Assembly (NCBI RefSeq): GCF_003315205.1
Contig: NZ_QNRR01000013.1
Span: forward strand, 131,959 to 195,958
Reading direction: 5' to 3'
Origin: Roseimicrobium gellanilyticum
GTDB lineage: Bacteria; Verrucomicrobiota; Verrucomicrobiia; Verrucomicrobiales; Verrucomicrobiaceae
DNA length: 64,000 nucleotides
Shown here: piece after piece, positions 5,248-60,149 of the stretch
Layout of the letters: every line of letters begins with the position of its first letter
Position numbering within the stretch: position 1 is the first letter of the stretch
Program-made: the position numbers and the translations under genes
The notes under the pieces: generated by a model
What the model was told of the DNA's origin: nothing
The model's input: only the letters and a program-made list of their open reading frames with translations
Database searches by the model: none

Positions 5248-5304
5248 ACTGTCAGAACGAGGCCGTTGCGATCCCTCAGGTTGTCCGCATACTGGGCGAG
5301 ACCC

Positions 5305-7195: not shown

Positions 7196-7245
7196 TGGCC
7201 CTGGGAGCGCTGGCTCCCAGCTGGCGTCATTGTCAGCTCAGCCAT

Positions 7246-9594
7246 TCACTCCACCATCTCCACCTTCACCTCACAGGTGGAGCTGCGACCATGATCGTCC
7301 AGCACATGGAGCTTCCATGAGCCTGCCGTAGCTTTCCAGAGCAAGGATTCTGCGGGCGTGCTGCTGCCCAGGAACTTCGCTCCTGCAAACCAGAAGATGG
7401 TGCGCACACCGGCGGACGTCTCGGCTCGAAGTGGAATGACCTGCTTGCTGGAGTCATTCACCCGCAATGAATACGTCAGCCTCGGTTGTGGCGACACGAT
7501 GCGCGGGATGTCTTGTGACTGTGCGGCGCGCAGGGCCACGGTGCTCGCTTCCAACGGAGGTGCCTCACGACGCGGCACGCCTGCCAGTCGGAAGAGCGCC
7601 AGCATGTCGGGCGGCCAAAACTCATACACTTCGCGGCGCAGGTCGCGCTTACCGTCATCGGCGATGACGCGCAGGCCGGTGCCCTGGTCGATCAGCACTT
7701 CACGATGGATATCACACGGCGCGATGGGCGACTTCCCAGGAATGAACCAACCCATGCGGCAGTGCTGGCAGTGCGGTGTGGGGATTTGTCCGGATACAGC
7801 GCAGAGTTGCACTTCACGCACGCCCTCCGGTGGCACGTCGCGATGCCACGGAAGGCGCAGGCGATGGAAGATTTCGAAGAGCAGGGGTGCCGCGCATTTA
7901 CGCGCGATGAAGGAGGGATTGGATTTGCCGTTGAAGTTCCCGATCCACACCACGCACACATATTCACCGCGAATGCCTGCGGCCCAGGCATCGCGGAAGC
8001 CGTGGGAGGTGCCAGTCTTCCATGAGATGGTGGGGTCGCTGAGTCCGGCTTCCTCTTCACGTGAAGCGAGCATGCGGCGCACGAGGAAGCAGGCTTCGGG
8101 AATGAGGAGTGCGTTTCCGGAAGGGTGCGAAACAGGGGCCGCGTGAGAATAGCGCAACGCACGGGGAGTGCCATCCGTAGCCAGCATGGCGTACATGGAA
8201 GCCAGTTCTTCCATGCTCACCTCGGCGCCACCGAGGGGAAGCGAGAGGCCATAGTGGTCTGCGGGACGCGGCAGGGAGACGCCCGCCTGTTTCAGGAAAC
8301 CATAAAGGCCCGGCTCGGCCAGCTTTCGCGTGAGGGCGACCGCGGGAATGTTGCGACTTCGGAAGAGTGCATCCTCCGCGGAGATGGGACCGGTGAATTC
8401 GCGGTCGAAGTTCTCGGGGTTGTAGTCACCGAAAGCGACCTGGCCATCACGCAAGAGGCTGCGCGGGTGAAGGAGGCCCTGTTGCAGAGCGAGCGCATAG
8501 ATGAAGGGCTTCAATGCGGAGCCGGGTGAGCGGCGGGCGGTGATGCCATCGACTTGGCCTGAGATGTCCACATTCAGGAAACTGGCGGAGCCTGCATAGG
8601 CGAGCACCTCGCGAGTGGGAGCGTGCACGAGCAAGGCACAGGCGTTGGTCATACCGACCTCGCGACGCACGGAGAGATAGTCGCGAAGCGAGCTCTCGAT
8701 CTGCTTCTGCATGCCGAGATCGATGGTGGTGGAGAGAGGGGGATACTGGATGGTGCCGGGTGTCGTGGCGTCTGCCAACAAGCGGCGAGCGAGGTGTGGG
8801 GCCTCGCGGGGAGGCTTGGCTTCTGGCTGCAGGACGAAAGTGGCATCGAGTCCGTCTGCGCGCAGGCCATGAGCTTCCTGCCAACGCTGCCAGAGGCGGA
8901 ACTGGGCAGCGGCAAGGGCATCATTGCCTCCGGAGATTTTCGGTCGACGCCGCGTGGGGCTCTGGGGCAGCACGCTGAGGCTCACGGCTTCTCGTGGTGT
9001 GAGATCTTTTGCGGACTTCCCACACCAGAGCAGTGATGCTGCGCCGATGCCCTCCACGTTGCCTCCGTAGGGGGCGAGATTGAGATATGCCTCCAGGATT
9101 TCTTCTTTCGAATAGTGCCTCTCGAGTTGCAGTGCCCGCAGCATCTGGACGAATTTTCCTGAGAAGGATTTCGTGGAGAGGTCATAGCGAAGTCGCGCCA
9201 GTTGCATCGTCACGGTGGAGGCACCGCCACGTCGCGTACCCGTCACCACACCCCAGCAAGCACGGCCGAGCGACAGTGGATTGATTCCCGGGTGCGAATG
9301 GAAGTGCCGGTCTTCCAGGAGCAGTGTCGCCTCGATGAGATCCGGACTGATCTCCGCGAGTGGGGTGTGCAGACGGTAGCGGGCATCCCCAGCCAGCGTG
9401 AGATGGATTACCTTGCCGTCACGGTCGAGTAATGCGCGAGAGAAGGTGAGGCCGGGAGGGTAGAGAGCGGGTTTGGGGCAGAGGGCGTAGGCGAGGAGGC
9501 AGCCCAGCAATAATACCGCGAATCCGGCAGTCCCCTTCCGAACCCAGCGACGTTTCCAAACACTAGAACCCACTGCCCTCAGAACTCCCTTCAT
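7246..9594 (-). CDS. pbpC: Penicillin-binding protein 1C (transglycosylase + transpeptidase-like + PBP1C C-terminal domain).
   Basis: N-terminal TM anchor. The GT51 region and transpeptidase fold are recognisable. ~780 aa, typical PbpC length. ORF could extend to 9738; start chosen at MKGVLRA (ATG 9594). Confidence 0.85.
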   Translation of the reverse strand: MKGVLRAVGSSVWKRRWVRKGTAGFAVLLLGCLLAYALCPKPALYPPGLTFSRALLDRDGKVIHLTLAGDARYRLHTPLAEISPDLIEATLLLEDRHFHSHPGINPLSLGRACWGVVTGTRRGGASTVTMQLARLRYDLSTKSFSGKFVQMLRALQLERHYSKEEILEAYLNLAPYGGNVEGIGAASLLWCGKSAKDLTPREAVSLSVLPQSPTRRRPKISGGNDALAAAQFRLWQRWQEAHGLRADGLDATFVLQPEAKPPREAPHLARRLLADATTPGTIQYPPLSTTIDLGMQKQIESSLRDYLSVRREVGMTNACALLVHAPTREVLAYAGSASFLNVDISGQVDGITARRSPGSALKPFIYALALQQGLLHPRSLLRDGQVAFGDYNPENFDREFTGPISAEDALFRSRNIPAVALTRKLAEPGLYGFLKQAGVSLPRPADHYGLSLPLGGAEVSMEELASMYAMLATDGTPRALRYSHAAPVSHPSGNALLIPEACFLVRRMLASREEEAGLSDPTISWKTGTSHGFRDAWAAGIRGEYVCVVWIGNFNGKSNPSFIARKCAAPLLFEIFHRLRLPWHRDVPPEGVREVQLCAVSGQIPTPHCQHCRMGWFIPGKSPIAPCDIHREVLIDQGTGLRVIADDGKRDLRREVYEFWPPDMLALFRLAGVPRREAPPLEASTVALRAAQSQDIPRIVSPQPRLTYSLRVNDSSKQVIPLRAETSAGVRTIFWFAGAKFLGSSTPAESLLWKATAGSWKLHVLDDHGRSSTCEVKVEMVE

Positions 9595-43882: not shown

Positions 43883-44953
43883 TCAGGAGGAGAGGTGCAT
43901 CCAGTCCGGATTGGCCTCCGCAAATTTCGCCACCTCGGAAAAGATGGCGTCGCGGCGGATTTCCGGCTGCCATCCCCAGAGGGAGCGGGCCTTGCTGTCA
44001 TCCAGCGCCAGCCAGGCAATGTCGAAGGGGCGCTCACTCCCATCCTCCTGAACCTCATTGCGATAACCAAAGTGCTGCTCACACCAGGCGCTGAGCTCCG
44101 CCAGGGAGAAGGTGCTCTCCGGGCCGCCGGCCACATTCAGCACCCGAGGCCGGTCCTCCGCCTCACCCTGCTGGATCTGGCTGAACACAAGGCCCGCAAC
44201 ATCATCGGGATGAACCACATCCCGAACCTGCCACCCCTTCCCGCCGAAGCCAAGGTACCGGAGACGCCGACTCTCCCGCCAGGAGTGAATCCAGAAGGCC
44301 ACGATGCCCTGGTCTGCCCGGCCAAACTGGCCTGCACCGGCCATGACGCCGCAGCGGTTGATGTGCACGGGGAGGTCGAAGGCGCTCGCGTATTCCAGCG
44401 CCAGATCCTCGCTCATCTTCTTGCTCACGCCATAAAGAGAGAGGGGCGGCGTGGTGGAGAAGTCCTCCGTCACGCCCCGAGCGGAGACGCCAACCGGCAA
44501 GCTTTGCTCTTCATCCAGCACAAAGCGGCTGCCCTTCTGCGCAACTGGCAGGGAGGCGAGCGGTCCTACGCCATACACGCGGCTGGTGCTCAGCAGCACA
44601 AAGCCCGCCGACTGGCGGCGGCAGAACTCCAGCATGTTCACCGTACCCTGGAGGTTGTGCTCGATGACCTGGCGACTGCTGCTCAGGCCATCCACACCAG
44701 CCAACACGCTCGGGTTCGCCGCGGCGTCGATGACCCAGTCCACGGGCGGCAGGTTGTCGAAGTCACTGGCACAGCGCACGTCGCCGTGGAAGAAACCCAC
44801 GCCGAGGTCCTTCAGCACAGGGCGGTTCCGCTCACTGCCCATGCGGCAGAGATTGTCCATGCCCAGCAGGGTCCAGCCCTCCGTGCTCTCCCGCAGACGG
44901 CGCAGAATCCGGCTTCCGACAAATCCACAAGCTCCTGTGACCAATACTCTCAT
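43883..44953 (-). CDS. NAD-dependent epimerase/dehydratase (extended SDR).
   Basis: VLVTGACGFVGS Rossmann motif. Y-x-x-x-K region. 356 aa. Confidence 0.8.
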   Translation of the reverse strand: MRVLVTGACGFVGSRILRRLRESTEGWTLLGMDNLCRMGSERNRPVLKDLGVGFFHGDVRCASDFDNLPPVDWVIDAAANPSVLAGVDGLSSSRQVIEHNLQGTVNMLEFCRRQSAGFVLLSTSRVYGVGPLASLPVAQKGSRFVLDEEQSLPVGVSARGVTEDFSTTPPLSLYGVSKKMSEDLALEYASAFDLPVHINRCGVMAGAGQFGRADQGIVAFWIHSWRESRRLRYLGFGGKGWQVRDVVHPDDVAGLVFSQIQQGEAEDRPRVLNVAGGPESTFSLAELSAWCEQHFGYRNEVQEDGSERPFDIAWLALDDSKARSLWGWQPEIRRDAIFSEVAKFAEANPDWMHLSS

Positions 44954-46179: not shown

Positions 46180-46545
46180 ATGCCCTCTCCCCACTTCACC
46201 TCTGTCATGCCAAGCGTGCCTGTCGCGGAACTGCCGCGCGCGGTCGCCTTCTACGCCGAGAATCTCGGCTTTGAGGTCGAATTCCAGAATGGCACCACCT
46301 ACGCCATTGTGTCGCGCGACGGCATCCAGCTTGGGATTGGCGCGCCGCCCATCTCCACAGTGCCGGCAGGTCATGGGCGCTGCTACTTCAAGCTCTCCAC
46401 CGGCATCGATGAACTGTACGAGGGTTATCGTTCCCGCGGGGTGACAATAATTCACGAGCTGCGCGATGAGAGCTACGGCATGAGGGAGTTCATGATTTCC
46501 GATCTGGATGGGAACCAGATCAATTTTGGCCAACCGCTGCCGTAG
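46180..46545 (+). CDS. VOC-family (glyoxalase / bleomycin-resistance-like) protein.
   Basis: Paired beta-alpha-beta-beta-beta modules. …FYAENLGFEV… N-terminal motif. 121 aa. Confidence 0.7.
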   Translation: MPSPHFTSVMPSVPVAELPRAVAFYAENLGFEVEFQNGTTYAIVSRDGIQLGIGAPPISTVPAGHGRCYFKLSTGIDELYEGYRSRGVTIIHELRDESYGMREFMISDLDGNQINFGQPLP

Positions 46546-46608: not shown

Positions 46609-48396
46609 ATGACTTCGCCAAACCGGAAACCGCTGCTCAGCAGGCTGCTGTTTGTCCTGGGCTGGACGCTGGCGTGGTCGCCGGCTTTGCTCATTCTCAC
46701 CATGCTGCTGCCTCTCCGGGTGCCGGTGCCCTTCGAGGATGCGTGGGCATTCGTGAAACAGTATCGCGATTGGTGGGAGGGTGACTATGGCTGGCGCGAG
46801 TTCCTTGCGCCGCACAACAACCACCCTTCCGCTTCGGGGAAGGTGTTCTACTTCATCGCACTTCACTGGCTGGGTGGTGACGTGGGTGTGCTGCCGCTCG
46901 TAGCATGGGCATTCTCCCTCATCATCGCCGTATCCGTGTGGGTGATGGCACGCTCGCTCTGGATGGGGCGTTCATCACGCGGGATGCTGCTGATGTTCTG
47001 TGCGAATCTCACCATCTTCACGGCAGCGCAGGGGCATTCGTGGGTGTGGGACTTCGTGTTTCAGAACTTCATTCCAGGAATGGCTTTCTGCGCCGCGCTG
47101 GCCACCTTGTGGAAATGGCCGGGGTCATGGTCTGCCCTCGTCGTGGCGTGGTGTCTTTCCATCATGGCCACATTCTCCTTCGGCACGGGGTTTCTCGCCG
47201 GGCTGCTGCTGACACCGATGGTGGCAATGCATTTCCGGGAGAAGCCCCTGGCGTGGCGTGGCGCGGTCACCGCGATCTGGTTGCTGCTGACAGGTGGCGC
47301 GGCCTTTCTCGCGCTCTCTGCCTTTGGCGAAGCGACCTACACCGGGGATGAATCCCGCGTTGGCAGCCTGTTGGAGCAGCCCGTACTCTTGGCACAATTT
47401 GTCCTCGTCCTGCTGGGCTATCTGCTCGGTAATGGCACCACCATGGAACCGGCCCTGCTCTGCGCTCTCGCCGGACTGGGGCTTGTCGTCATCCTGCTGG
47501 CATGCGTCTTTCGCGTGTGGCAGCTGCGCAAGGAGCCGGGCATGGTCCAGGCAGCCATGCCCTGGGTGCTGACGACCCTCTTTGGGTTGCTCAATGCCGG
47601 ACTCATCAGCTACGGAAGGCTGCGGTCGTCAATGATTTCCGCGATGGCTCCCCGGTATGTGACGTTCACGCTCTTCTTCACCCTGGGTGTGCTCCTGCTG
47701 GCAGCGGTCGTCGCGGTACGCGACAAGCCTTCAGGCTGGTTCCGCGTTGGCATGCGGCGCGCGGGGCTGTTGCTGGTGGGGGGACTCATTGCCCTGCACG
47801 TGGTGAACTGGAATCATGGCTGGCAACACATGAAGTGGGAGCACGAGCGGATGCAGCAGGACCGGGCGCTGCTCTCCTTTGCCAAGGTGCTGCCGCTGGA
47901 CCCGGAGGTGATGTGGCAGAATCTCGACCACAAAGATCTGACGACGCGGCTGGCCCTGTTCCTTCATGAGCATGACCGATTGAAGAGCGTGCGCCTGGTA
48001 AAGGGCGTGGCCATCACGGATTTCCGTCGCGGCTCCCCACTGCCGGACAAATGGGCCTGGCTGGAAGCGCCCGTGGTGCACGAGGGTGTGATGCATCTCA
48101 GCGGCGCCTGTGGCGTCTCCAAGGACATGGTCAGCCTTCCGGAACTTGTGCTCATCACCGCCCAGTCGGCGGATGCGGGCGAGAGCGTGGTCTCGTTTGC
48201 CACACCGCGACAGCCTTTCGACTTCTATGAGAATGAATGGCTGCGACGCCAGCATCCGGGGCACTACTTCGGCTGGGCGCGAGAGCTCCCTGTGTCGAGA
48301 TTTCCGAAGGGGAAGGTCACGGTCCGCGCGTATGGGTATTGGATGAAGGGATTCACCGTGCGGGCGCTGGACCGGGAGCATGTGATTGACCTTTGA
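46609..48396 (+). CDS. Polytopic membrane protein with a C-terminal soluble domain (GT-C-like architecture). Paralog of 54011-56041.
   Basis: About 11 TM segments. First-loop acidic motif PFEDAWAF. Shared motifs with the paralog (APRY…; …HG(W)QH(M)…W…R; P(L/V)(D/N)P…). Confidence 0.65.
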   Translation: MTSPNRKPLLSRLLFVLGWTLAWSPALLILTMLLPLRVPVPFEDAWAFVKQYRDWWEGDYGWREFLAPHNNHPSASGKVFYFIALHWLGGDVGVLPLVAWAFSLIIAVSVWVMARSLWMGRSSRGMLLMFCANLTIFTAAQGHSWVWDFVFQNFIPGMAFCAALATLWKWPGSWSALVVAWCLSIMATFSFGTGFLAGLLLTPMVAMHFREKPLAWRGAVTAIWLLLTGGAAFLALSAFGEATYTGDESRVGSLLEQPVLLAQFVLVLLGYLLGNGTTMEPALLCALAGLGLVVILLACVFRVWQLRKEPGMVQAAMPWVLTTLFGLLNAGLISYGRLRSSMISAMAPRYVTFTLFFTLGVLLLAAVVAVRDKPSGWFRVGMRRAGLLLVGGLIALHVVNWNHGWQHMKWEHERMQQDRALLSFAKVLPLDPEVMWQNLDHKDLTTRLALFLHEHDRLKSVRLVKGVAITDFRRGSPLPDKWAWLEAPVVHEGVMHLSGACGVSKDMVSLPELVLITAQSADAGESVVSFATPRQPFDFYENEWLRRQHPGHYFGWARELPVSRFPKGKVTVRAYGYWMKGFTVRALDREHVIDL

Positions 48397-48561
48397 CGTC
48401 CTTCTCGTGTCGACGAGTCCGAGACTATCGTTTTCTCCCAAGCGCCATAATGGCATTGACACGCCCCTCCCCTTTCTCAAACATCCATGCACCTGAGTGT
48501 TCGCCGGGAAACCTTTCCGGGAAGTGGCGCAGCGTCTGCTCTTACGGAGCGCCGATGCGGC

Positions 48562-49107
48562 ATGCCTGGCATCATCACAGTTCCAGCCGCCACCGTGAAA
48601 CCCGTTCCAACATCTGACAACCGCTATGGGGGAGGCCGTCCGCCGAAGTTTGACGAGCCCAGCCGTCCCATCACGGTCACGTTGCCGGAAAGCACGCTGC
48701 AGGGACTCCAGAAGATCGACCCCGACCGCGGTCGTGCGATCGTGCGCCTGACTCAGGAAGCGCTGCGTGATCAGGAACAGGAGCAACCGCTCGTGGAAGT
48801 GCTGGAGATGGCGCCCAATACCGGGCTCATTGTCGTTGGCCCCAGTCTCACGCTACAGCGCATCCCGTTTCTCCATCTGGTGGAAGTGTCCCCAACCCGT
48901 TTCCTCATCGCACTGGATACCGGCAACGATTACCGTGCGCTGGAACTGGCTGTCAGGGACATCTTGGAGGAAGTGCCAGCCGCTGAAACTCGGGAGCGCG
49001 CCCTGCTCAACCAGCTTCTGGATGTCACCAAGAAGCTCCGCCAAAGCGAGCGGGTCAGCATGGCTGAAATCCTGCTGGTGAAGTTGGACGGCAAGCGCAA
49101 GCGCTGA
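48562..49107 (+). CDS. Hypothetical protein.
   Basis: ORF in the right orientation between membrane paralog A and the PSCyt gene. No domain recognised. Confidence 0.35.
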   Translation: MPGIITVPAATVKPVPTSDNRYGGGRPPKFDEPSRPITVTLPESTLQGLQKIDPDRGRAIVRLTQEALRDQEQEQPLVEVLEMAPNTGLIVVGPSLTLQRIPFLHLVEVSPTRFLIALDTGNDYRALELAVRDILEEVPAAETRERALLNQLLDVTKKLRQSERVSMAEILLVKLDGKRKR

Positions 49108-49285
49108 CGTCCCGCTTCCGTTTGAGCACCACCCTCGACAGGCAAAAATCCTTTTTTTGCTTTTCTTTGCTTCGCTTGGCGGCAATTTCTACGTAAAAAT
49201 ACAGCAAAGTTTTCTATTTCTAAGTAGAAATTCGTGGTGGATAAGCCATAGAAACGTAGCATCGTCCATCCCCGCCGCTCGTCTC
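49108..49285 (+). promoter_or_regulatory. Unusually AT-rich promoter region with three copies of a TTTCTAcGTA-like motif, two of them forming a 12-bp IR (AATTTCTACGTA / TAAGTAGAAATT).
   Basis: 49184-49195, 49221-49232 and 49247-49260. Local GC is far below the genome background. Confidence 0.45.
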
Positions 49286-52200
49286 ATGACCCTCATGACT
49301 TCTCCGCAACGCTGGATTGCGGTTGGTGCATGTCTTATCTGCACCAACGGGCTGGCGCATGCTGCGCAGGAAGTTCTCCCTCAAAAACTCGAGTACAACA
49401 AACACATCCGCCCCATCCTGGCAGACCGGTGTTTTCGCTGCCACGGAGCGGATGAACGGGCACGCAAGGCCAAGCTACGGCTCGATGATTTCGACCAAGC
49501 CGTTTCAGCGAAGGCCCTGATTCCGGGAGACGCGGAGCACAGCGCGCTGGTGCAGCGCATCCTCACCGCGGACCAGGAGGATGTGATGCCTCCGCCGGAC
49601 TCTCACCTGTCCCTGAGCGCGGACGAAAAGGCACTGTTGAAACGCTGGGTCGAGGAAGGGGCTGCGTATCAAAAGCACTGGGCATTCATACCGCCGGTGA
49701 TGCCTGCAGTGCCCCAGGTTTCCCATGAGGGGACACAGCCGGAGAACCCGATCGATGCCTTTGTTCTCGCCAACCTGAAGGCACACGGACTCAAGGCAGC
49801 GCCACCCGCAGAGCGTGCGGCGTGGCTGCGCCGCGTCACGTTTGCATTGACGGGTCTGCCACCCAGCACCGCAGAGCTGGAGGCATTCTTCGCAGACACG
49901 TCGCCGGTAGCACGTGAGAAGGTGGTGGATCGTCTTCTGGATGCGCCAGCCTATGGGGAGCATTTTGGAAAACAGTGGATGGATGCCGCCCGCTACGCGG
50001 ACAGCTATGGGCGCCACGAAGATGGCGACATGATCGCATGGCCGTGGCGTGACTGGGTGATTCACGCCTTCAACTCCAATCTGCCCTACAATCGTTTCGT
50101 CGAATGGCAGACGGCGGGAGATCTTTTGCCCGGAGCCACCGTGGAGCAGCGTGTGGCCACCGCCTTCAACCGCTTCTCCCCGCAGTCCAACGAGAGCGGC
50201 AGTGACCCGCTGGAGTTTCGCCTCGACCAAGTGAGTGACCGCGTGCGAGTGAATGGCCTGGCATTCATGGGACTCACCATGGAGTGCGCGAAGTGCCACG
50301 ACCACAAGTACGATCCCATCTCCCAAAAGGAGTATTGGCAGATGGCCGCGATGTTCGACAACATCGAGGAAAATGGCGTCTACTCGCAGTACTGCCCGAA
50401 GGCCGTGCCCTCGCCGTCCATCCTGCTGCCAAACCAGGCGGAACAACTGCGCCTCGGTGCCTTGCAATGGCAGATCGCAGCAGTGGAACGTGAGCTCGAT
50501 GACATCAAAAAGCGCGTGCGCCCCCAGTACGATGCGTGGATCGCCGCGAATGGTGTGCCCGGAGAGCTGACCCCCGGCGCGTGGAACCGGGTAAAAGGCT
50601 GGTTCGGTGGGGGTGATATCGCTCCCTACAAGCCGCAAGCCAAGGGGCGCTTCCTCTTCGATGACGCGAAACCCAAGGGCGGCAAGGACGTGGTCAACAA
50701 CGCGAACAAGAAGAAGCCCGGTCGTGAGCGTGCCAAATTGGAGTCCATCGAAGGACCCCCAGGACGGGGGCGCGCGGTGCTGCTGAAGGGGGATGACGAA
50801 ATCACCTTCCCGGGGCTCGGCGAGTATCACAAGCACGACCGCTTCAGCTTTGCTCTCTGGATGCAACCGCGGGAACATCGCGACCGCGCGGTGGTGATCT
50901 CCTGGTCACGCGGCGGACTGGATGATGGCCGTGGATATGAAGTGCTGCTGGAGAATGAAGTGCCCTCCTTCGCCCTGATGCATTTCCATCCCGGCAATGA
51001 GATCCGCATCCGCGCCAAGTCACCGCTGCCGCTGAATCAATGGACCCATTTCGCGGTGAGCTATGATGGCAGCAGCCGCGCCTCGGGCCTGAAGATGTGG
51101 ATCAACGGTGAGCCTGTGGCCAGCGAGACCGTGCAAGATCATTTGCAGAAGGACATCGCCCGGCGTGAGGAGTGGGGCGACATCGATCGCGATGCCATCT
51201 TCTTCGCGCTGGGCGGGCGGTTCCACGATTCACCGCTCAAGAACTGTGCCGTAGATGAGTTCCATGTCTTCAGCCGCTCCCTGAGCGATGGCGAAACCAG
51301 ACATCTCGCCGGGCTGCATGCGACCGCCGATGACTGGTATGACTGGTGGCTGCAAACGAAGTGCCAGGAGTGGAAGGACATGGCGCACTCGGCCATGCTT
51401 CTGCGGAAAAAACTCACCGCCACCACGAATGACGTGCTGGAGATGATGGTAATGCAGGAGCGGCCTGCACTGCGGCCAAGCTTTGTCCGCGTGCGTGGTG
51501 ACTACCGGCAGCCTTCCGCTGAGGTGAAGCCGGGAATGCCGGAGGCCGTGCTCCCCTTCCCGGACAAACTGCCGCGCAACCGTCTGGGTCTCGCCCAGTG
51601 GCTCACCAGTTCCGAGCACCCGCTGACCAGTCGCGTGGCGGTGAACCGGCTGTGGCAGACTGTGTTTGGCCGTGGGCTCGTGGGGACACCAGAGGACTTC
51701 GGCACGCGTGGCGAACTGCCCACCCATCCTGAACTGCTGGACTGGCTGGCCTGCACCTTCACCCAACACGGATGGGACGTGAAGCGCATGGTACGTCTCA
51801 TGGTGCTGAGCGAAACGTTTGGACAGAGCATACGCCCTGAAAACGCGGCCACCCTTTCCCAGGACCCGGAAAACAAACTGCTGGCGCGTGGCCCACACGT
51901 GCGACTGACCGCGGAAGAACTGCGCGACCAGGCGCTCGCGACCTGTGGTCTGCTCAATCCCAAAATAGGCGGTCCCAGCGCGCGTCCGTATGTGCCGGAA
52001 CATTTCTATCAGGAGTCCGGTCTCCAGCAGAGCTACAAGACGGATACAGGGGGGAACCTGTACCGCCGCAGCCTCTACACCTTCTGGCGCCGCACCCTGC
52101 CACCACCGGATCTCGCCGCGTTCGATGCGCCTTCACGCGAGTTCTGCGTGGTGCGTCGTGAGCAGACCACCTCCCCAGCCCAGGCACTCATGCTGCTGAA

Positions 52201-52519
52201 CAACACGCAGTATGTGGAAGCTCAGCGCGTCCTCGCGGAGCGACTGGTAAACGAACATCGCGATGACTCGCAAGCACGCTGCGTGGAAGCGTTCCGCCTT
52301 TTCACGTCACGCGAGCCCACCGGGGCGGAGACCACGGCCATGATGCATCTGCTGGAAGTGGAACTGGAATTTTTCCATGCAAACCCAACCGAAGCCTCCA
52401 CCCTGCTGCACAGCAATGGGCAGGCTCCGGTGAAACAAAACCTGCCTCCCGATGAGGTGGCCGCCACCACACTGCTGGTACGCGCGCTCATGAGTCACGA
52501 CGAATCCCTGCACCGTTGA
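49286..52519 (+). CDS. PSCyt (planctomycete cytochrome-c-like) + DUF1549 + LamG-like + DUF1553 multidomain protein.
   Basis: Signal peptide. CFRCHG haem-binding-like motif. DUF1549 region (…RRVTFALTGLPPS…). ECAKCHDHKYDP is the DUF1553 hallmark. Central concanavalin/LamG-like segment. Confidence 0.85.
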   Translation: MTLMTSPQRWIAVGACLICTNGLAHAAQEVLPQKLEYNKHIRPILADRCFRCHGADERARKAKLRLDDFDQAVSAKALIPGDAEHSALVQRILTADQEDVMPPPDSHLSLSADEKALLKRWVEEGAAYQKHWAFIPPVMPAVPQVSHEGTQPENPIDAFVLANLKAHGLKAAPPAERAAWLRRVTFALTGLPPSTAELEAFFADTSPVAREKVVDRLLDAPAYGEHFGKQWMDAARYADSYGRHEDGDMIAWPWRDWVIHAFNSNLPYNRFVEWQTAGDLLPGATVEQRVATAFNRFSPQSNESGSDPLEFRLDQVSDRVRVNGLAFMGLTMECAKCHDHKYDPISQKEYWQMAAMFDNIEENGVYSQYCPKAVPSPSILLPNQAEQLRLGALQWQIAAVERELDDIKKRVRPQYDAWIAANGVPGELTPGAWNRVKGWFGGGDIAPYKPQAKGRFLFDDAKPKGGKDVVNNANKKKPGRERAKLESIEGPPGRGRAVLLKGDDEITFPGLGEYHKHDRFSFALWMQPREHRDRAVVISWSRGGLDDGRGYEVLLENEVPSFALMHFHPGNEIRIRAKSPLPLNQWTHFAVSYDGSSRASGLKMWINGEPVASETVQDHLQKDIARREEWGDIDRDAIFFALGGRFHDSPLKNCAVDEFHVFSRSLSDGETRHLAGLHATADDWYDWWLQTKCQEWKDMAHSAMLLRKKLTATTNDVLEMMVMQERPALRPSFVRVRGDYRQPSAEVKPGMPEAVLPFPDKLPRNRLGLAQWLTSSEHPLTSRVAVNRLWQTVFGRGLVGTPEDFGTRGELPTHPELLDWLACTFTQHGWDVKRMVRLMVLSETFGQSIRPENAATLSQDPENKLLARGPHVRLTAEELRDQALATCGLLNPKIGGPSARPYVPEHFYQESGLQQSYKTDTGGNLYRRSLYTFWRRTLPPPDLAAFDAPSREFCVVRREQTTSPAQALMLLNNTQYVEAQRVLAERLVNEHRDDSQARCVEAFRLFTSREPTGAETTAMMHLLEVELEFFHANPTEASTLLHSNGQAPVKQNLPPDEVAATTLLVRALMSHDESLHR

Positions 52520-52523
52520 TCCC

Positions 52524-53993
52524 ATGATTGGCTCCCACACCACACGTCGCCAGCTTCTCAGCCGTCTGGGCCTGGGGTTCGGCGGCATGGCATTTTCCAG
52601 CCTGCTCGCGGGGAATGCGTCTTCCCATGACAATCTTGCAGCGATGCCTGCGGGCAACGCACTGCCAGGGCTCCCGCATTTCGCCCCCCAGGCGAAGCGC
52701 GTCATCTTCCTTTTCATGAGCGGTGGGCCGTCCCATGTGGACAGCTTCGATTACAAGCCTGAGTTGCAGAAGCTGCAGGGACAGAGTCTGCCAGATTCCT
52801 TCCGCAAGGGCCGCCAGTCACTGCCCGGCATGTCGGGAAACCAAACGCTCTTCCAGCTGAAAGGTTCCTCCCATCCCTTCACCCGCTGCGGACAGAGCGG
52901 TGCCTGGGTGAGCAATGCGTTTCCGCACATCGCGCGCGTGGCGGATGAGTTGTGCTTTGTGAAGTCGATGGTCTCGGAGTCGGTGAATCACGATCCAGCC
53001 ATCACCTTCATCCAGACAGGCTCCCCCATCGCGGGGCGTCCCAGCGCAGGCTCATGGATCCAGTACGGGCTCGGTCGCGAGAATGAAAACCTGCCTGCCT
53101 TCATTGTGCTCATCTCCCGGAGGTCTGTGGACCAGCCCTTGAGCAGCAAACTGTGGGGCAGTGGCTTCCTTCCTGCGAGATACGATGGTGTGCAGCTTCG
53201 TGCCTCCAAAGACCCTGTACTCTACCTGAGCGACCCTCCCGGCATCCCTCGTGAAGCGAACCGGCGCATGCTGGATGGCCTGAAAGAACTGCAGTCCGTA
53301 CAACCGGGCACAGCGGTGAGTGCGGATGCGGATGCGCGCTGGGAATCCTACGAGATGGCCTTCCGCATGCAGACGGCCATTCCAGACGTGATGGACCTGA
53401 GCAAGGAGCAGTCCCATGTCTTTGATTTGTACGGTCCTGACTCACGCACCCCGGGCACCTTCGCAGCAAACTGTCTGCAGGCGCGCCGACTGGCGGAGAG
53501 AGGAGTGCGCTTCATCCAGCTCTTCCATCCGGGATGGGACCAGCACAGCAACATGGAACAGGACTTCCCCATCAGTTCCCGTGAAGTGGACCAGGCCAGC
53601 GCCGCGCTCATCATGGATCTGAAGGAGCGTGGCATGCTCAAGGATACGCTGGTGGTATGGGGTGGCGAATTTGGCCGCACGCCCTACCTGCAGGGCCGTG
53701 TGGGCAAGGGGGACAAAGGAGGACGCGATCACCATCCGAACTGCTTCACCTTCTGGATGGCCGGAGGCGGCATCAAGCCTGGAATCACCCACGGAGAATC
53801 TGATGAACTCGGATATCATGTGGCACAAACTCCGGTGCACGTGCACGACTTCCATGCCACCATGCTTCACCTCCTGGGCATCAACCACGAACGCTTCACC
53901 TACCACTTCCAAGGCCGCGACTTCCGTCTCACTGATGTCTCCGGCACTGTCGTGAAGGACATTCTCAGCAAAGCCGCCAGTCACGGAGTCTGA
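52524..53993 (+). CDS. DUF1501 protein (sulfatase / alkaline-phosphatase superfamily) with a twin-arginine signal.
   Basis: TRRQLLSRLGLGFGG Tat motif. Canonical partner of DUF1549/DUF1553 genes. Confidence 0.85.
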   Translation: MIGSHTTRRQLLSRLGLGFGGMAFSSLLAGNASSHDNLAAMPAGNALPGLPHFAPQAKRVIFLFMSGGPSHVDSFDYKPELQKLQGQSLPDSFRKGRQSLPGMSGNQTLFQLKGSSHPFTRCGQSGAWVSNAFPHIARVADELCFVKSMVSESVNHDPAITFIQTGSPIAGRPSAGSWIQYGLGRENENLPAFIVLISRRSVDQPLSSKLWGSGFLPARYDGVQLRASKDPVLYLSDPPGIPREANRRMLDGLKELQSVQPGTAVSADADARWESYEMAFRMQTAIPDVMDLSKEQSHVFDLYGPDSRTPGTFAANCLQARRLAERGVRFIQLFHPGWDQHSNMEQDFPISSREVDQASAALIMDLKERGMLKDTLVVWGGEFGRTPYLQGRVGKGDKGGRDHHPNCFTFWMAGGGIKPGITHGESDELGYHVAQTPVHVHDFHATMLHLLGINHERFTYHFQGRDFRLTDVSGTVVKDILSKAASHGV

Positions 53994-54010
53994 CACATCG
54001 CACATCCTTC

Positions 54011-56041
54011 ATGGTGGAATCCTCCCTGTCCCCCCAACCGGCCGCACCCGCGGTTTCCCAGTCCACCTTGCCGGGCACGGTCCAGAAGCCGGCAACCTTC
54101 ATCGAGAGATTCCGGCTGGTCCTGGGCTGCCTTCTGGTCAGCCTGCCGGGTATCGCGCTTTTCCTGCTCATCCGTGAGCACCGTGTGAACATCCCCTTCC
54201 TCGATGACTGGATGTTTGTGCATATGTTCGAGAAGGACGCCCTGGGCACACTGACGGTGGCGGACTACTTCATGGTGCAGATGGAGCACCGCATGGCATT
54301 TGTGCGGGCGGTGATCATGGTGTTTCACAAGGTGTGGCCCACGGACTGGACCATGCAGATGTTCTTCTGCTGGTTTCTCCTTGTCCTCACCCAGGTGAAT
54401 GTGGGCGTCCTCATCAAGCGCACCTCGGGGAAGTCCTTCCTCACGTGGTGGCCCCTGCTCATGCTGGCAGCGCTCACCCTCTTCTCACCGGTGCAGTACC
54501 GCATCGTGCTCTGGGCGATGATGTTTCAGGTGGCCTGTCCGGCCTTCTTCCTGAGCACGGCGCTGGTGGCCGTCACTTCTCCGTGGCCACTGTGGCTGCG
54601 GTGGATCGTGGGTGTGCTGGCCGCAAGCTGCGCCACGCAGAGTTTCGCCTCCGGCATCCTTGTGTGGCTCCTGCCGCTGCCCATCGTCTGGTTCGGCGGT
54701 GTCATCCGCAATTCCCTAGCGCGGCACATTTTCGGCGCGCTGTGGCTGGTGGCCTTCGGCATCACCATGGTCCTCTACTTCCATGACCTGAAGAATGAGG
54801 TGGACTCCGCCTTCGCGTACAAGCAGCAGGATGGTCATGAAACGCTGAAGAGTGACCTAGCAGGATTCCTCAAGGAGCCTGGAAGGGCCGTCCCGTATGT
54901 GCTGCGTTTCCTTGGCGGGCATCTGGGGCGTGGCAGCAGTCTCAGCGTGATGCACGCGAGTTTTTATGCGGGCCTCATCTCCGTCCTCCTGTACACGGGT
55001 GCAATGGCGTACCTCCTGTGGCATTGGAAACGGTTGGACATCCGGGCGAAGCTTCTGCCCTGGCTGATGTTCGGCGCGTACTCCATCGCGACCGCCTGCC
55101 TCGTGGCGGTGGGACGCATGTGGGCGTCCACGAATGGAGACAATGCGATCGCCCCACGGTATGCCATTCATCCGGTTCCGCTGACCGTTTCGCTCATCGT
55201 GCTCACCTGGCTGATTGTGCGGGACTGGCAGAAGCAGCGCGAAACTCCTGTGCGCACCGTGAACCGCGCGATGCTGGCCATGGCGGTGGTGCTCTGCTGT
55301 GTGCAGGCGGCCTCCTGGGTGCATGGACAGCACCTCATGGAGATGTGGCAGTCCTCACGCCTGCGCGGCGCGGTCACCACGCGCTTCGTGAAAGTGATGC
55401 CCGAGATGGACAACGTGGTGCCGGTGAATCCCCACTACGCGATCCTTGCGGACAGGCTGGGCCTGCTGGACCCACCCCTGCTGAAGGATCGCCAGCTCAA
55501 CAATTTCCGCCTCGCGCCAAAGATGCTGAGCTCAAACACCGCGAGGTTCAAGAACATCGAGATTGGCATGGATGACGATGGGTTCTACGGCATCGCTGAA
55601 GGGTATGCGTGCCTGGCTTCACGAGAGCGTGTGGCGGACGGTGTCTTCCTCACGCGGCGTATTCCACGCGAGGGACGCTGGGAAATCTTCCACGTGGAGC
55701 AGGTCACGGGCATGCCGCTGTTCCTTGGTGAGATGTTCTTCAAGGACACACAGTTTGTGCATTTGCCAGGGCAAAGTGTGACGCAGGAGGTGCTGGCCGG
55801 GTTCTCAGGGCGCTTCCGATTGAATGAACTGCCTCCGGGGCTGCATGACATCATGGCCTGGGCATATGATTCCAAGAAAAACACCGTCTTTCCCATCGCG
55901 GGATTCTTCGAGTTGGATACCAGGGGCGCACACCCCAAGCTGAAGCGCTTGGGCACCAACCCGGCGGCGGTACATCTGAGCAAGTTCCTGGAGGGTGGGA
56001 AAAATCCACAGCCACAGTCACAGCCAGCGACGGAAGAGTAG
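54011..56041 (+). CDS. Polytopic membrane protein (GT-C-like architecture). Paralog of 46609-48396.
   Basis: Multi-TM N-terminal half with IPFLDDWMFV first-loop motif. Soluble C-terminal half. Confidence 0.65.
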   Translation: MVESSLSPQPAAPAVSQSTLPGTVQKPATFIERFRLVLGCLLVSLPGIALFLLIREHRVNIPFLDDWMFVHMFEKDALGTLTVADYFMVQMEHRMAFVRAVIMVFHKVWPTDWTMQMFFCWFLLVLTQVNVGVLIKRTSGKSFLTWWPLLMLAALTLFSPVQYRIVLWAMMFQVACPAFFLSTALVAVTSPWPLWLRWIVGVLAASCATQSFASGILVWLLPLPIVWFGGVIRNSLARHIFGALWLVAFGITMVLYFHDLKNEVDSAFAYKQQDGHETLKSDLAGFLKEPGRAVPYVLRFLGGHLGRGSSLSVMHASFYAGLISVLLYTGAMAYLLWHWKRLDIRAKLLPWLMFGAYSIATACLVAVGRMWASTNGDNAIAPRYAIHPVPLTVSLIVLTWLIVRDWQKQRETPVRTVNRAMLAMAVVLCCVQAASWVHGQHLMEMWQSSRLRGAVTTRFVKVMPEMDNVVPVNPHYAILADRLGLLDPPLLKDRQLNNFRLAPKMLSSNTARFKNIEIGMDDDGFYGIAEGYACLASRERVADGVFLTRRIPREGRWEIFHVEQVTGMPLFLGEMFFKDTQFVHLPGQSVTQEVLAGFSGRFRLNELPPGLHDIMAWAYDSKKNTVFPIAGFFELDTRGAHPKLKRLGTNPAAVHLSKFLEGGKNPQPQSQPATEE

Positions 56042-56262: not shown

Positions 56263-57513
56263 TCACTCTTCCCCACCTGTCGTCTCCACGGAGGCTTTCA
56301 GGCGGAAGCCTTGGACGCTGGTCTGACCCTCGTAGGAGTAGATGCGCTGCACGTCGCCAATCTTCATCAGCAGCCAGGGGGATGCGATGTTTTCACCGTT
56401 CTTGGTGTAGACGATGTCGTCCGCAACATAGACGCAGGAGTGGATGGCATTTCCCTGGGCATTGAGGAACATGAGCACATCGCCAAACTCAAAGGGAGCC
56501 TCGATGCGATTGTAGTTCTCCAGCACCGCAGCCGTCGCCAGGCGGGTGTCCAGATAGTACTCGCGGGGTTTGTAGTTGAAGAAATTGAGGGACGTCCAGT
56601 GGCAGTCCGGCATGCGGCCGAGGACGGCCAGTTCCATGGGCGGGTAGCCATAGAGGAATCGGCGGGCCAGCGAGGGCAGCAGTTGGATGACGTCCAGCTT
56701 GTTTTCGCCCTCGGTTTCCAGGGTAGAGCCGACCAGGGGCTCGATGTCCTTGTTTCGCTTGCGACCGCTCCAGTAGCGAACCACGCTTTTGAAGTCGGTG
56801 TTGTCATCCACGACCAGCTTGAGCATGAGAGACCGGGTGCGGGTCATGGTCTTGAAGAAGTCCTTCGCCTCGGCGTCCGTCTTCACATAGTTCAGCACAG
56901 CAGAGAGGTCGCTGAAGGCGAGCACCTCGCCACGCATGTAGGTGAATTTCTTGATCACCTCCCGGAGCTCTGGATTGAGACGGGACTGGCCCAGCCACTG
57001 GTCGACACTACCGCTGGTGATGAACACAGGGTTGAAGTAGAACTCGTTCTCCGGTGTCTTCGCCAGCTCGGCATAAATGACAGAGCGCTGGGCGGGAGTC
57101 ATGGCCGAAAGGTCCGGCAGCGGGGGGAAGACGGTGATTCTCCCGTCCTTGTTCACGCAGTTCTTGGCATCCAGCAGGTAGTCCTGAAGCGCCTGGGGAA
57201 GAGATGCGCGGGTGAATAGCGCTCTGAGGTCACCTTCCGTCGCGGCGGGGAATTCCCACTTGGTGACGGAGTTGGGCATGGGGAAATGCTCAATGAGGCT
57301 CTGGGGTGCCTCGAGGTAGATATAATAATACTCAAGCTGCCCCCAAGGGCCTGGGTTGCAATGATAGACCTTTCCGAACATCTCTGAGCTTGAGTTCCCT
57401 TCTGGCAATGGCGTACCTGCCTGAGCCGGACTCGATGCCTGGGGCAGCAGCAAACCGGCAACAGTACCGGCGAAGAGAGCGAGAAGACGGTGCGAAAGGG
57501 AACGGGGCATCAT
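56263..57513 (-). CDS. Secreted protein with a C-terminal papain-like (NlpC/P60-type Cys…His) region.
   Basis: Signal peptide. …MPDCHW… (candidate Cys) about 45 aa before GDVLMFLNAQGNAIHSCVYVADDIVYTKNG, which resembles the His-region of NlpC/P60. Confidence 0.5.
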   Translation of the reverse strand: MMPRSLSHRLLALFAGTVAGLLLPQASSPAQAGTPLPEGNSSSEMFGKVYHCNPGPWGQLEYYYIYLEAPQSLIEHFPMPNSVTKWEFPAATEGDLRALFTRASLPQALQDYLLDAKNCVNKDGRITVFPPLPDLSAMTPAQRSVIYAELAKTPENEFYFNPVFITSGSVDQWLGQSRLNPELREVIKKFTYMRGEVLAFSDLSAVLNYVKTDAEAKDFFKTMTRTRSLMLKLVVDDNTDFKSVVRYWSGRKRNKDIEPLVGSTLETEGENKLDVIQLLPSLARRFLYGYPPMELAVLGRMPDCHWTSLNFFNYKPREYYLDTRLATAAVLENYNRIEAPFEFGDVLMFLNAQGNAIHSCVYVADDIVYTKNGENIASPWLLMKIGDVQRIYSYEGQTSVQGFRLKASVETTGGEE

Positions 57514-57662
57514 TGAGAGGTGCGGAAACGGGGGGCGGTACTGGTGTGAAACGGATGGCCTTTGTCAATCATAGGCTCTCCGGCGTTGAATTCTGCTTTT
57601 CGTGCAGCAGAAGATTGTCATTCTCCGGCAAATACGCTCTAATCGCGACCTTGATTCTAAAA

Positions 57663-60149
57663 ATGCCCGGAGGTACCCCCCCACTGCCCATTTCAACGAC
57701 CGCCAGGAAGGCTCTTTGCCCTCTCCTGCTGGCTGGCAGCGTCTGGTGTGGAACCGCAACGCTCCTCCAGGCTGGCCCAGCAGGGGCCCCGACCTCCTCC
57801 GTTGCCGAAAGGGAAGTGGCCCGTCGTGCCGCCCTGATGCAACAGGCCAAAGTCTACATCGCCGAAGCCGCTCTCCTTGAACAGAAAGGGCAGCATGCGG
57901 AGGCCGCCGCCAGCTATCGTGAGGCGTGGAATCTCCTGCCGAATGCTCCCATGGCCGCTTCCCTGCGTGCCGAGGCCCGGGATGGCTACTCCCGCACGGC
58001 GGTGCTCTACGCTCGCCAACTGGCCAAAGAGGCTCGCTATGATGATGCCCGCACCCTGCTGAAATCCGTTCTCGCTGAAGATTTCAATCCGGGATATGCG
58101 GACGCCAAGCAGTTCGAAAAGGAACTGGATGATCCCGACCGCTACGAGCCGGCACTGACTCCGAAGCATGTCAAAGATGTAGCCAGGGTGGAGGAGCAAC
58201 TCCGCTTGGGCTGGAGCCATATCAATCTGGGCAATTTCGACAAGGCGAACGAACGCTTCAAGGAAGCCCTGAGAATCGACCCCTACAACAAGGCCGCCCG
58301 CCGTGGCATGGAGCAGTCGGAGCAGCACAAGGATGACTACTTCGATACCGCGAGGGACCACACCCGCGCCAAAATGCTGTCCGCGGTGGATCAGGGCTGG
58401 GAAGACTCTGTACCGGTCGATTTGTCCAAGCTTTTTGGCGCATCCGCTCAACTGGGCGTGATGGGAGGCACCCGCGAGTCCAATCTGGTGAAGCTGCGCA
58501 CTTTCATGGTGCCCATGGTGGAGCTGCAGGGTGCCGGTCTTGAGGAAGTCGTTGAGTTCCTGCGCATCCGCAGCCGCGAGATTGACCCCCAGAAGAAGGG
58601 CGTGGACTTCGTGCTCAAGGTCGCCCCGGAGTACGCAAACAAGCCCGTGACCCTCAACATGGTGGGCGTGCCGCTAGAGGAAGTGCTCCGGTATGCCACG
58701 GAAATGACCGGTACGATCTACCGGGTGGACGAATTCGCGGTGACCATCACCTCCCGTGCGGAGCGGTCTGATACCCTTGTTTCCCGCAGCTATCGCGTCC
58801 CTCCTGATTTCCTGCAGAACGCCCCGTCCGGTGGAGCCGCTGCTCCTCCTGCCAATCCCTTCGATCCGCAACCGGCGGCCACGGGTCTGACTATTCGGCG
58901 CATGGGCGTGCGGGAGTTCTTGGAGCAGCGCGGTGTGAAGTTCCCCGAAGGCGCTGCGGCATCCTACAGTCCCGCCACGAACATCCTCACCGTGCGCAAC
59001 ACCGAGGAGAATCTGGTGCTCGTCGACGCCATGGTGGACCAAATCGCCAGCGCGGTGCCTCGACAGGTGGAAATCCAGGTGCGGATGGTGGAAATCAACC
59101 AGAACCGCTTCAACGAATTCGGCTTCGACTGGCTTCTGGGACAGTTCAATCTGCCTGGCACGGAGAAGGTCTTCGGCAGCGGCGGCACGGTCGGCAATCA
59201 GCGTAACGCTCCCTTCGCGAGTTCTGACTTCGGTCTTGGCTATCCCGGTACAAACGTTCCGATTGGCGTGAATCCCATCACCTCGGGCCTGCGCAGCTCT
59301 GGAGCCATTCTGGGAACGCCATCGATTGACGGCCTCATCGGCCAGAGAAGAAATGTGGGCCTGGATTCCCGCTCGCCCGGCACTTTCTCCGTGACGGGGG
59401 TCTTCACCGACCCACAGTTCCAGATGGTGCTGCGCACGCTCGACCAGAACAAGGGTGTGGATTTCCTCGTCGCTCCGAATGTGGTCACCAAGAGCGGCCA
59501 GCGCGCCCGGGTGTCCGTCTCGCGTGAGTTCATCTACCCTACTGAGTTCGACCCGCCACAGATTCCCCAGAGCCTGGGTTCTTCTGAGACCGTTACCATC
59601 GTCAATGGTGTTCCTGTAAGCGTGGAAGTGAATGGCCCGGGCGTGGTTCCCGTGACCCCGACTACGCCAACCGCATTCGAGATGCGCGAGGTCGGTGTGA
59701 TTCTCGAGGTGGAACCCGTGGTGGGACCGGACAATCGCACGGTGGAACTCAACCTCGTCCCGAGCCTGGTCGAGTTTGAGGGTTTCATCAACTACGGCAC
59801 CCCCATCACACTGACCGGTTCCGATGTGCCGCCCAACACCATCGCGACGCCCAACGAAATCCTGCAGCCCATCTTCCGTACCAACAAGATCTCCACGAAT
59901 GTGACCGTGTATGACGGCCAGACGGTGGTGCTGGGTGGAGTGATGTACGAAAAGCGCCAGGACATCGATGACAAGGTCCCCATCATCGGTGACATCCCCA
60001 TCATCGGTCGCGCTTTCCAGAGCCAGCTCGGCAATGTGGAAAAGAAGAACGTGCTCTTCTATGTGTCCGTGAAGATTCTTGATCCGGGTGGCAATCGCGT
60101 AAACCCGATCATGACGGTCGAAGAAGGCGCGGCGACGGTGGCGCGCTAA
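57663..60149 (+). CDS. Secretin-family outer-membrane channel protein (GspD/PilQ-like) with an N-terminal TPR-like region.
   Basis: C-terminal secretin domain signature …TVVLGGVMYEKRQDIDDKVPIIGDIPIIGRAFQS…VLFYVSVKIL. Start ATG 57663 (signal MPGGTPPLPISTTARKALCPLLLAGSVWCG). Confidence 0.8.
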   Translation: MPGGTPPLPISTTARKALCPLLLAGSVWCGTATLLQAGPAGAPTSSVAEREVARRAALMQQAKVYIAEAALLEQKGQHAEAAASYREAWNLLPNAPMAASLRAEARDGYSRTAVLYARQLAKEARYDDARTLLKSVLAEDFNPGYADAKQFEKELDDPDRYEPALTPKHVKDVARVEEQLRLGWSHINLGNFDKANERFKEALRIDPYNKAARRGMEQSEQHKDDYFDTARDHTRAKMLSAVDQGWEDSVPVDLSKLFGASAQLGVMGGTRESNLVKLRTFMVPMVELQGAGLEEVVEFLRIRSREIDPQKKGVDFVLKVAPEYANKPVTLNMVGVPLEEVLRYATEMTGTIYRVDEFAVTITSRAERSDTLVSRSYRVPPDFLQNAPSGGAAAPPANPFDPQPAATGLTIRRMGVREFLEQRGVKFPEGAAASYSPATNILTVRNTEENLVLVDAMVDQIASAVPRQVEIQVRMVEINQNRFNEFGFDWLLGQFNLPGTEKVFGSGGTVGNQRNAPFASSDFGLGYPGTNVPIGVNPITSGLRSSGAILGTPSIDGLIGQRRNVGLDSRSPGTFSVTGVFTDPQFQMVLRTLDQNKGVDFLVAPNVVTKSGQRARVSVSREFIYPTEFDPPQIPQSLGSSETVTIVNGVPVSVEVNGPGVVPVTPTTPTAFEMREVGVILEVEPVVGPDNRTVELNLVPSLVEFEGFINYGTPITLTGSDVPPNTIATPNEILQPIFRTNKISTNVTVYDGQTVVLGGVMYEKRQDIDDKVPIIGDIPIIGRAFQSQLGNVEKKNVLFYVSVKILDPGGNRVNPIMTVEEGAATVAR

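Follow-up and report, generated by a model that had tools for sequence, protein, structure and literature searches.

A PSCyt/DUF1501 gene pair of Roseimicrobium gellanilyticum lies in a conserved cassette with a putative GT-C glycosyltransferase

The gene pair encoding a PSCyt/DUF1553 protein and a DUF1501 protein is a signature of Planctomycetes and Verrucomicrobia, with many copies in some genomes. Two surveys describe its function as unknown (PMC3542564, PMC5615132). We analyzed one such pair in a 64,000-nucleotide stretch of DNA from Roseimicrobium gellanilyticum (contig NZ_QNRR01000013.1, positions 131,959–195,958; hereafter, the window), where it lies between the genes of two membrane proteins, MP1 (595 aa, 46609–48396, + strand) and MP2 (676 aa, 54011–56041, +). 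The two proteins are 100% identical to RBP37763.1 (DES53_113146) and RBP37767.1 (DES53_113150), respectively. Between them are the gene of a small cytoplasmic protein, hyp206 (48563–49107, +), an AT-rich gap (about 49140–49260), a 1077-aa PSCyt1/DUF1549 (PSCyt2)/LamG/DUF1553 (PSD1) protein (49286–52519, +), and a 489-aa DUF1501 protein with a twin-arginine translocation (Tat) signal (52524–53993, +). Only 4 nt separate the PSCyt gene from the DUF1501 gene, and 17 nt separate the DUF1501 stop codon from the MP2 start codon. An earlier reading of this DNA, made from the letters alone (hereafter, the sequence-only reading), had proposed that two paralogous membrane proteins flank the pair, and the open reading frames (ORFs) and Pfam domains bear this out. 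Our results suggest that MP1 and MP2 are putative GT-C glycosyltransferases, and that the MP2 gene forms a conserved cassette with the pair.

The paralogy of MP1 and MP2 is supported by BLASTP (25% identity across ~500 aa, E = 8e-21). The similarity ends past the last transmembrane (TM) helix. The sequence-only reading had also described conserved blocks in the C-terminal soluble halves; we reject this claim because the two C-terminal domains fail to align pairwise (E = 2.6), with few family-wide positions aligning (G531/G499, A616/A574). The acidic first-loop motif that it had pointed out is PFEDAW in MP1 (residues 41–46; 46729–46746, +) and PFLDDW in MP2 (residues 62–67; 54194–54211, +), and its Asp, the predicted catalytic residue (D44 in MP1, D65 in MP2), is invariant in alignments of 45, 36, and 110 sequences. 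Across 110 relatives with 18–39% identity, no substitution occurs at D65, R369, or G531, and R383/Y384 are almost as constant.

The family is large: we counted 10,622 clusters (at 50% identity) at E ≤ 1e-3 and 2,139 at E ≤ 1e-30. Neither MP1 nor MP2 matched a Pfam or NCBIfam family, a profile of both clades found nothing among PDB sequences, and family-level Pfam scans of 10 and then 70 diverse relatives gave no match (the 70 at E ≤ 0.01). MP1 and MP2 very probably belong, as divergent members, to a large family with the GT-C fold. The family bears a clear catalytic signature but is covered by neither a Pfam nor an NCBIfam model, and for lack of such a model it is invisible to routine annotation of envelope-glycan genes. 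The GT-C idea is not new for MP1, since its UniProt name is already 'ArnT-like glycosyltransferase'. Family members also occur in multiple copies: P0192 (1215 aa) is a fused double copy with two family matches in one protein, and tandem MP2-like duplicates or clusters of three paralogues were seen elsewhere (L025 1534–4186; L006 and L018; locus numbers are ours). These fused, tandem, and clustered copies suggest sequential or multi-specificity glycosylation. We also noted that the P0051 cluster of Verrucomicrobium spinosum (90% identity) is represented in one assembly by an intact 660-aa protein (WP_009960915.1), and in a second assembly by five fragments of 101–216 aa on one 60,843-bp contig; the fragmented copy reflects either a pseudogene or sequencing frameshifts.

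AlphaFold models of the two proteins, built on 45- and 36-sequence alignments, reached a pLDDT of 91 and pTM values of 0.90 and 0.92. Each model comprises 11 TM helices and ends in a beta-sandwich at the C-terminus, and its first loop contains two short helices. In MP2, the short helices (64–78 and 96–108) lie between TM1 (30–57) and TM2 (115–139), while those of MP1 span residues 43–56 and 75–87. The N-terminal seven-TM module and the overall fold match those of solved GT-C enzymes. Two juxtamembrane (JM) helices occupy the presumably periplasmic TM1–TM2 loop, as in the GT-C_A class, and an Asp sits at the tip of the first of them, JM1, with D65 and D44 in the first helix turn. According to the study of AftB, an essential Asp occupies this tip in all GT-C_A enzymes; AftB is itself an 11-TM protein whose C-terminal domain is periplasmic, and its Asp is D62, part of a DD motif (PMC12041299). 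The protein O-mannosyltransferases Pmt2 and Pmt4 are among the best structural matches of the models, and AftB, ALG, and ArnT enzymes score equally well. A crude count of Lys plus Arg gave a density of 0.24 inside versus 0.06 outside for MP1, which fits a cytoplasmic N-terminus.

The likeness to any one characterized family is one of fold. We found no PMT, PMT_2, or MIR Pfam signal (E ≤ 1) that would place the proteins in the PMT/GT39 family, and the marks of ArnT/GT83 (Pfam PMT_2, NCBIfam ArnT, and linkage to arn genes) were likewise absent. A transporter identity, which would have undone the GT-C proposal of the sequence-only reading, was considered and rejected because the matches to the major facilitator superfamily (MFS) and to G protein-coupled receptors (GPCRs) are at noise level (Foldseek probability <0.35). 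The proposal itself was upheld by the fold, by the position of the predicted catalytic Asp, and by the GtrB-like gene that accompanies related genes at other loci. We consider it highly likely that MP1 and MP2 are GT-C glycosyltransferases that depend on a polyprenyl-phosphate-sugar and work at the periplasmic face.

The pair also has the domains that had been read from its sequence. Pfam recognizes PSCyt1, DUF1549, Laminin_G_3, and DUF1553 in the first protein (E = 5e-14 to 5e-95), and its translation carries a Sec-type signal and two CxxCH motifs (CFRCH and CAKCH). The most likely start codon is ATG 49286, in an ORF that begins at 49157; it agrees with the gene call in Roseimicrobium sp. ORNL1, is kept in locus L001, and persists as a remnant in L022. 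The second protein matches DUF1501 (E = 7e-156), with a faint Sulfatase match (E = 0.15), and bears the twin-arginine motif TRRQLL. PSCyt1, PSCyt2, and PSD1 thus occur in one protein whose gene adjoins that of a Tat-exported DUF1501 protein, the arrangement that defines the PSCyt/PSD1 and DUF1501 module. By sequence, neither protein has a solved relative, except for a LamG/pentraxin-like match (E = 0.007), and our literature search found no functional study of the pair.

Upstream of the pair, the small gene and the AT-rich stretch with repeats noted by the sequence-only reading are both present. The small gene occupies an ORF at 48487–49107, and its homologues (61–89% identity in L001, L022, and L024) point to a start near 48563 or later, giving a protein of ~170 aa. 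It matched no Pfam family, and an N-terminal match to CopG was non-significant (E about 1). The GC content falls to 0.36 at 49150–49249, versus about 0.60 elsewhere, and two 16-bp palindromes of the form ATTTCTAnnTAGAAAT are found there (2 matches in 64 kb versus 0.01 expected): ATTTCTACGTAAAAAT at 49185–49200 and ATTTCTAAGTAGAAAT at 49216–49231, spaced 31 nt apart and without strand. Both are kept in Roseimicrobium sp. ORNL1, and the second one also in L022, a contig from a metagenome-assembled genome (MAG). The palindromes resemble operators to which a dimeric regulator would bind. In L024, from a Roseimicrobium MAG, a 65%-identical small gene (5173–5670) lies between a GtrB-like GT2 gene and an MP2-like gene. 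Given the adjacent palindromes, the CopG-like hint, and this placement in L024, we regard the small gene as a candidate regulator, possibly of the ribbon-helix-helix type, and no more. A scan for sigma-70 promoters returned 0 promoters and a terminator scan performed at chance level; both were uninformative.

Conservation of the linkage was counted over 25 independent MP2-clade loci, and a metagenome scan returned 5 loci; the neighbor-joining tree that we used had no bootstrap support and served for coarse clades only. In 8 of the 25 loci, an orthologous DUF1501 gene (60–94% identity) lies directly upstream of the MP2-clade gene or of the GT2 gene that precedes it, and a PSCyt gene (46–88% identity) is present too wherever the contig is long enough. 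These cassette loci, several of which are MAG or metagenome contigs, are the window, Roseimicrobium sp. ORNL1, two Verrucomicrobium strains, L017, L025, L027, and L023. A GtrB-like GT2 gene is found directly upstream of the MP2-clade gene in 9/25 loci (L005, L012, L014, L015, L019–L021, L023, and L024). Because GT2 recurs upstream in nine loci and the pair in eight, we regard PSCyt-DUF1501-(GT2)-GT-C as a conserved cassette. In Verrucomicrobium, the DUF1501 stop codon and the GT2 start codon overlap by 4 nt.

The metagenomic locus L023 represents a second, divergent type of cassette. Its MP2 homologue served as a proxy for a second R. gellanilyticum paralogue, P0033 (87% identity), and its gene order (PSCyt, DUF1501, GT2, GT-C, glycerate kinase, FabD) is that of Verrucomicrobium. 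The PSCyt and DUF1501 proteins of L023 are an outgroup to all other cassette copies, so the linkage has outlasted deep divergence or a duplication. Adjacency of MP2 and the pair recurs in other genera, and the refuting outcome that the sequence-only reading had named, an adjacency conserved in no related genome, did not arise. Its five-gene arrangement held in part: the full order is seen only in Roseimicrobium-like loci (L001/L002). Likewise, bracketing of the pair by two paralogues holds in Roseimicrobium-like loci, but Verrucomicrobium has upstream of the pair a paralogue from a different clade, encoded on the opposite strand. The conserved partner of the pair is MP2 only. The suggestion of the sequence-only reading, that the membrane proteins might modify or process what the pair handles, is accordingly plausible for MP2 alone.

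The GT2 neighbors point to the likely source of the donor. In Verrucomicrobium sp. BvORR106, a 346-aa GT2 protein with C-terminal TM helices is encoded ahead of the MP2 orthologue and matches Synechocystis GtrB (5EKP, E = 4e-47) and ArnC (E = 2e-29). The Joint Genome Institute (JGI) annotates the GT2 partner as a dolichol-phosphate mannosyltransferase. A distant family member from Leptolyngbya sp. BL-A-14 (L030 5933–9827; 23% identity to MP2) has a GtrB-type GT2 gene and a methyltransferase gene upstream, so the pairing of GT2 with GT-C reaches beyond Verrucomicrobia. In MP1-clade loci, a DPMS-like GT2 gene (5MLZ, E = 2e-20) lies a few kb off. A phosphoglucomutase/phosphomannomutase gene follows the MP2-like gene in L024, and a 1.2-kb gap in L014 contained no convincing gene. 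We noticed no flippase of the GtrA, MATE, or SMR type when we looked over the genes called at these loci, in an inspection that included no search aimed at flippases.

MP1 has a different history. We found 16 close homologues, MP1 standing alone at 65% identity, and MP1-clade genes elsewhere have no PSCyt/DUF1501 pair within 5 kb. In the window, MP1 is preceded by a glyoxalase gene (46180–46545, +) and by a gene for an NAD-dependent sugar epimerase/dehydratase (43883–44953, −; Pfam Epimerase, E = 6e-30), which belongs to the MP1 context and lies outside the cassette. Beyond MP2 is a 416-aa hypothetical gene (56263–57513, −), an MP1-clade neighbor for which the Pfam search gave no match. Epimerase genes flank the MP1-like gene in L031 and L032 (one of them with 72% identity to that of the window). 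The gene that comes right after the MP1-like gene in L031 (9734–10891, −; ~400 aa) is 67% identical to the 416-aa gene, so that it and the epimerase gene (6743–7864) flank the MP1-like gene directly. From this flanking pattern, the block of small gene, PSCyt, DUF1501, and MP2 appears to have been inserted between MP1 and the 416-aa gene in Roseimicrobium, that is, beside a pre-existing MP1 locus, with the 416-aa gene marking the far edge of the insertion. We also noted that the end of the 416-aa gene is overlapped by an opposite-strand gene (57306–60149, +) for a 947-aa protein in which TPR repeats are fused to a secretin domain (Pfam Secretin, E = 9e-29).

Collectively, we favor with moderate confidence an explanation in which MP1 and MP2 are GT-C enzymes, MP2 belongs to a cassette with the pair, and the pair shares a glycan with MP2. 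MP1 and MP2 would span the inner membrane with their 11 TM helices and have a cytoplasmic N-terminus and a periplasmic C-terminal domain resembling immunoglobulin (Ig) or fibronectin type III (FN3) folds. A GT2 enzyme of the GtrB/DPM1 type would make the donor, a polyprenyl-monophosphate-sugar, at the cytoplasmic face, and the sugar would then be transferred to a periplasmic acceptor via the invariant Asp at the JM1 tip. The donor phosphate is probably bound by the conserved Arg and the Arg-Tyr, which lie where TM9 meets the periplasm. Since the C-terminal domains of MP1 and MP2 are unrelated, different acceptors or linkages are implied. The MP2 cassette would consist of PSCyt-LamG-DUF1553, DUF1501, a GtrB-like GT2, and the GT-C, with GT2 presumably lost from the window copy, and would probably be transcribed as an operon from the AT-rich promoter with its two palindromic operators. 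That MP2 and the pair share one periplasmic glycan or glycoconjugate as their substrate is, in our judgement, as likely as not. Of these elements, our analysis shows the paralogy, the fold, the conserved residues, and the synteny; the donor type, the topology, the operon structure, and the shared substrate are inferred. More tentatively, the pair might be a periplasmic glycan-processing module in which the lectin-like domain binds the product of GT2 and the GT-C, and the cytochrome-like and DUF1501 parts modify it.

Several observations weigh against this explanation. At the level of the enzymes, the negative Pfam, NCBIfam, and PDB-profile results leave no sequence-level tie to a characterized GT-C family; the catalytic Asp was placed from predicted secondary structure and not by residue-level superposition; and the Lys plus Arg density of MP2, counted over loop residues only, is weakly biased (0.12 inside versus 0.09 outside). 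At the level of the linkage, the 64-kb window has no GtrB-like or DPMS-like GT2 gene and no GtrA-like flippase gene, neither GT2 nor the pair is found nearby in 11/25 MP2-clade loci, and all cassette loci come from Verrucomicrobiaceae-like sequences, so that part of the signal reflects gene order kept by descent. Locus L022 (1–3317), a Roseimicrobium-like MAG contig, has MP1 (75% identity), the small gene (87%), and MP2 (78%) with no pair; there, a palindrome-bearing promoter and a 48-codon stub precede MP2. This is most simply a loss of the pair by deletion, although an assembly artefact is possible. Because L022 keeps the GT-C genes without the pair, the GT-C genes do not need it. This speaks for synteny alone, by which MP1 and MP2 would be GT-C enzymes of envelope glycan synthesis, and the pair, an often-duplicated module, would have settled in front of a GT2-GT-C operon in some Verrucomicrobiaceae ancestor and been inherited since. 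The pair is missing from most loci of the family, and L021 and L024, which hold a divergent paralogue and GT2-GT-C genes without the pair, fit its later insertion into an intergenic region. PSCyt/DUF1501 modules are, moreover, numerous and variously arranged in genomes of the Planctomycetes-Verrucomicrobia-Chlamydiae (PVC) superphylum (PMC3542564). Against this, two cassette types with only 46% identity between their PSCyt proteins and 60% between their DUF1501 proteins both retain the linkage, it survives divergence of MP2 down to 42% identity, and the gaps are operon-tight, including the stop/start overlap with GT2. We therefore hold the synteny-only account to be possible, if rather doubtful.

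The structural matches raise the alternative that the pair is itself the acceptor, with MP2 and a GtrB-like synthase O-glycosylating the PSCyt protein, the DUF1501 protein, or both, as Ppm1 and Pmt do in Actinobacteria. The standing of Pmt2 and Pmt4 among the best matches, the JGI name of the GT2 partner, and the Sec-type signal of the PSCyt protein, which would therefore cross the membrane unfolded, all accord with this idea. However, the proteins lack the Pfam signals of PMTs; enzymes with glycan or lipid acceptors (AftB, ALG, and ArnT) match the models as well as PMTs do; no Ser/Thr-rich linker is apparent by eye in the PSCyt translation; the DUF1501 protein is exported folded by Tat; and most family members have no PSCyt neighbor. 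Glycosylation of the pair proteins is thus unlikely. A non-catalytic role, with MP1 and MP2 as GT-C-like scaffolds (compare PIGU/GAB1 in the glycosylphosphatidylinositol (GPI) transamidase) or as transporters, finds an echo in a faint Pfam match to Gaa1 (E = 0.54). It is very improbable given the invariant Asp at the catalytic position, the Arg and Arg-Tyr conserved across a large family, the polyprenyl-phosphate glycosyltransferase genes that recur beside family members, the noise-level MFS and GPCR matches, and the higher structural scores of catalytic GT-C enzymes over GT-C-like scaffolds.

If the pair is such a glycan-processing module, the cassette would offer the first genetic handle on the most expanded gene pair without an assigned function in Planctomycetes and Verrucomicrobia, and the GT-C family would be a new one with an acceptor defined by the pair. 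In the cassette, a single orthologous subfamily of the pair occurs together with a putative lipid-linked-sugar synthase and a periplasmic GT-C, and this association points to a glycan or glycoconjugate substrate. Tractable genetic targets exist, since V. spinosum has a near-identical MP2-clade gene.

Among known systems, the mycobacterial arabinofuranosyltransferase AftB (GT-C_A; PDB 9DLH) resembles the two proteins in its 11 TM helices, its C-terminal periplasmic domain, and its DD motif, which MP2 shares. It differs in sequence (7–11% identity to MP1 and MP2, with no sequence-profile match) and in its two-lobed cap, in contrast to the Ig/FN3-like sandwich of MP1 and MP2. AftB also draws its donor from the decaprenylphosphoryl-arabinose (DPA) pathway of mycobacteria, whereas the likely donor synthase here is a GtrB-type hexose enzyme in a Gram-negative verrucomicrobium without arabinan. 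Pmt1, Pmt2, and Pmt4 (GT39) have a MIR domain and a PMT/PMT_2 match that MP1 and MP2 lack, and their periplasmic domain lies within a loop rather than at the C-terminus. The PSCyt/DUF1501 modules of Kamneva 2012 (PMC3542564) and He 2017 (PMC5615132) include a locus type with the same domain architecture; the consulted sections of these papers mention no link to GT2 and GT-C genes, which we find for one orthologous subfamily. Three-component systems (GtrA/GtrB/Gtr*, ArnC/ArnT, CsbB/YfhO, and GT136; PMC11127046) follow the same logic, in which a cytoplasmic lipid-sugar synthase is followed by a periplasmic GT-C. A GtrB-like gene beside the GT-C is absent from the window but present in the nine loci above. 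The cassette adds to this logic a cytochrome-like, lectin-containing PSCyt/DUF1553 protein and a DUF1501 protein, and our literature search found no report of either as a partner of three-component systems. An independent precedent comes from Proteobacteria, where a chitin synthase gene of the GT2 type and a DUF1501 gene are inherited together (PMC5122149). That DUF1800/DUF1501 operon joins a Tat-exported DUF1501 protein to a membrane glycosyltransferase and a sugar epimerase, as here, but has DUF1800 in place of PSCyt/DUF1553 and a processive GT2 in place of a GT-C. By analogy, this co-inheritance fits a glycan-related role for the pair.

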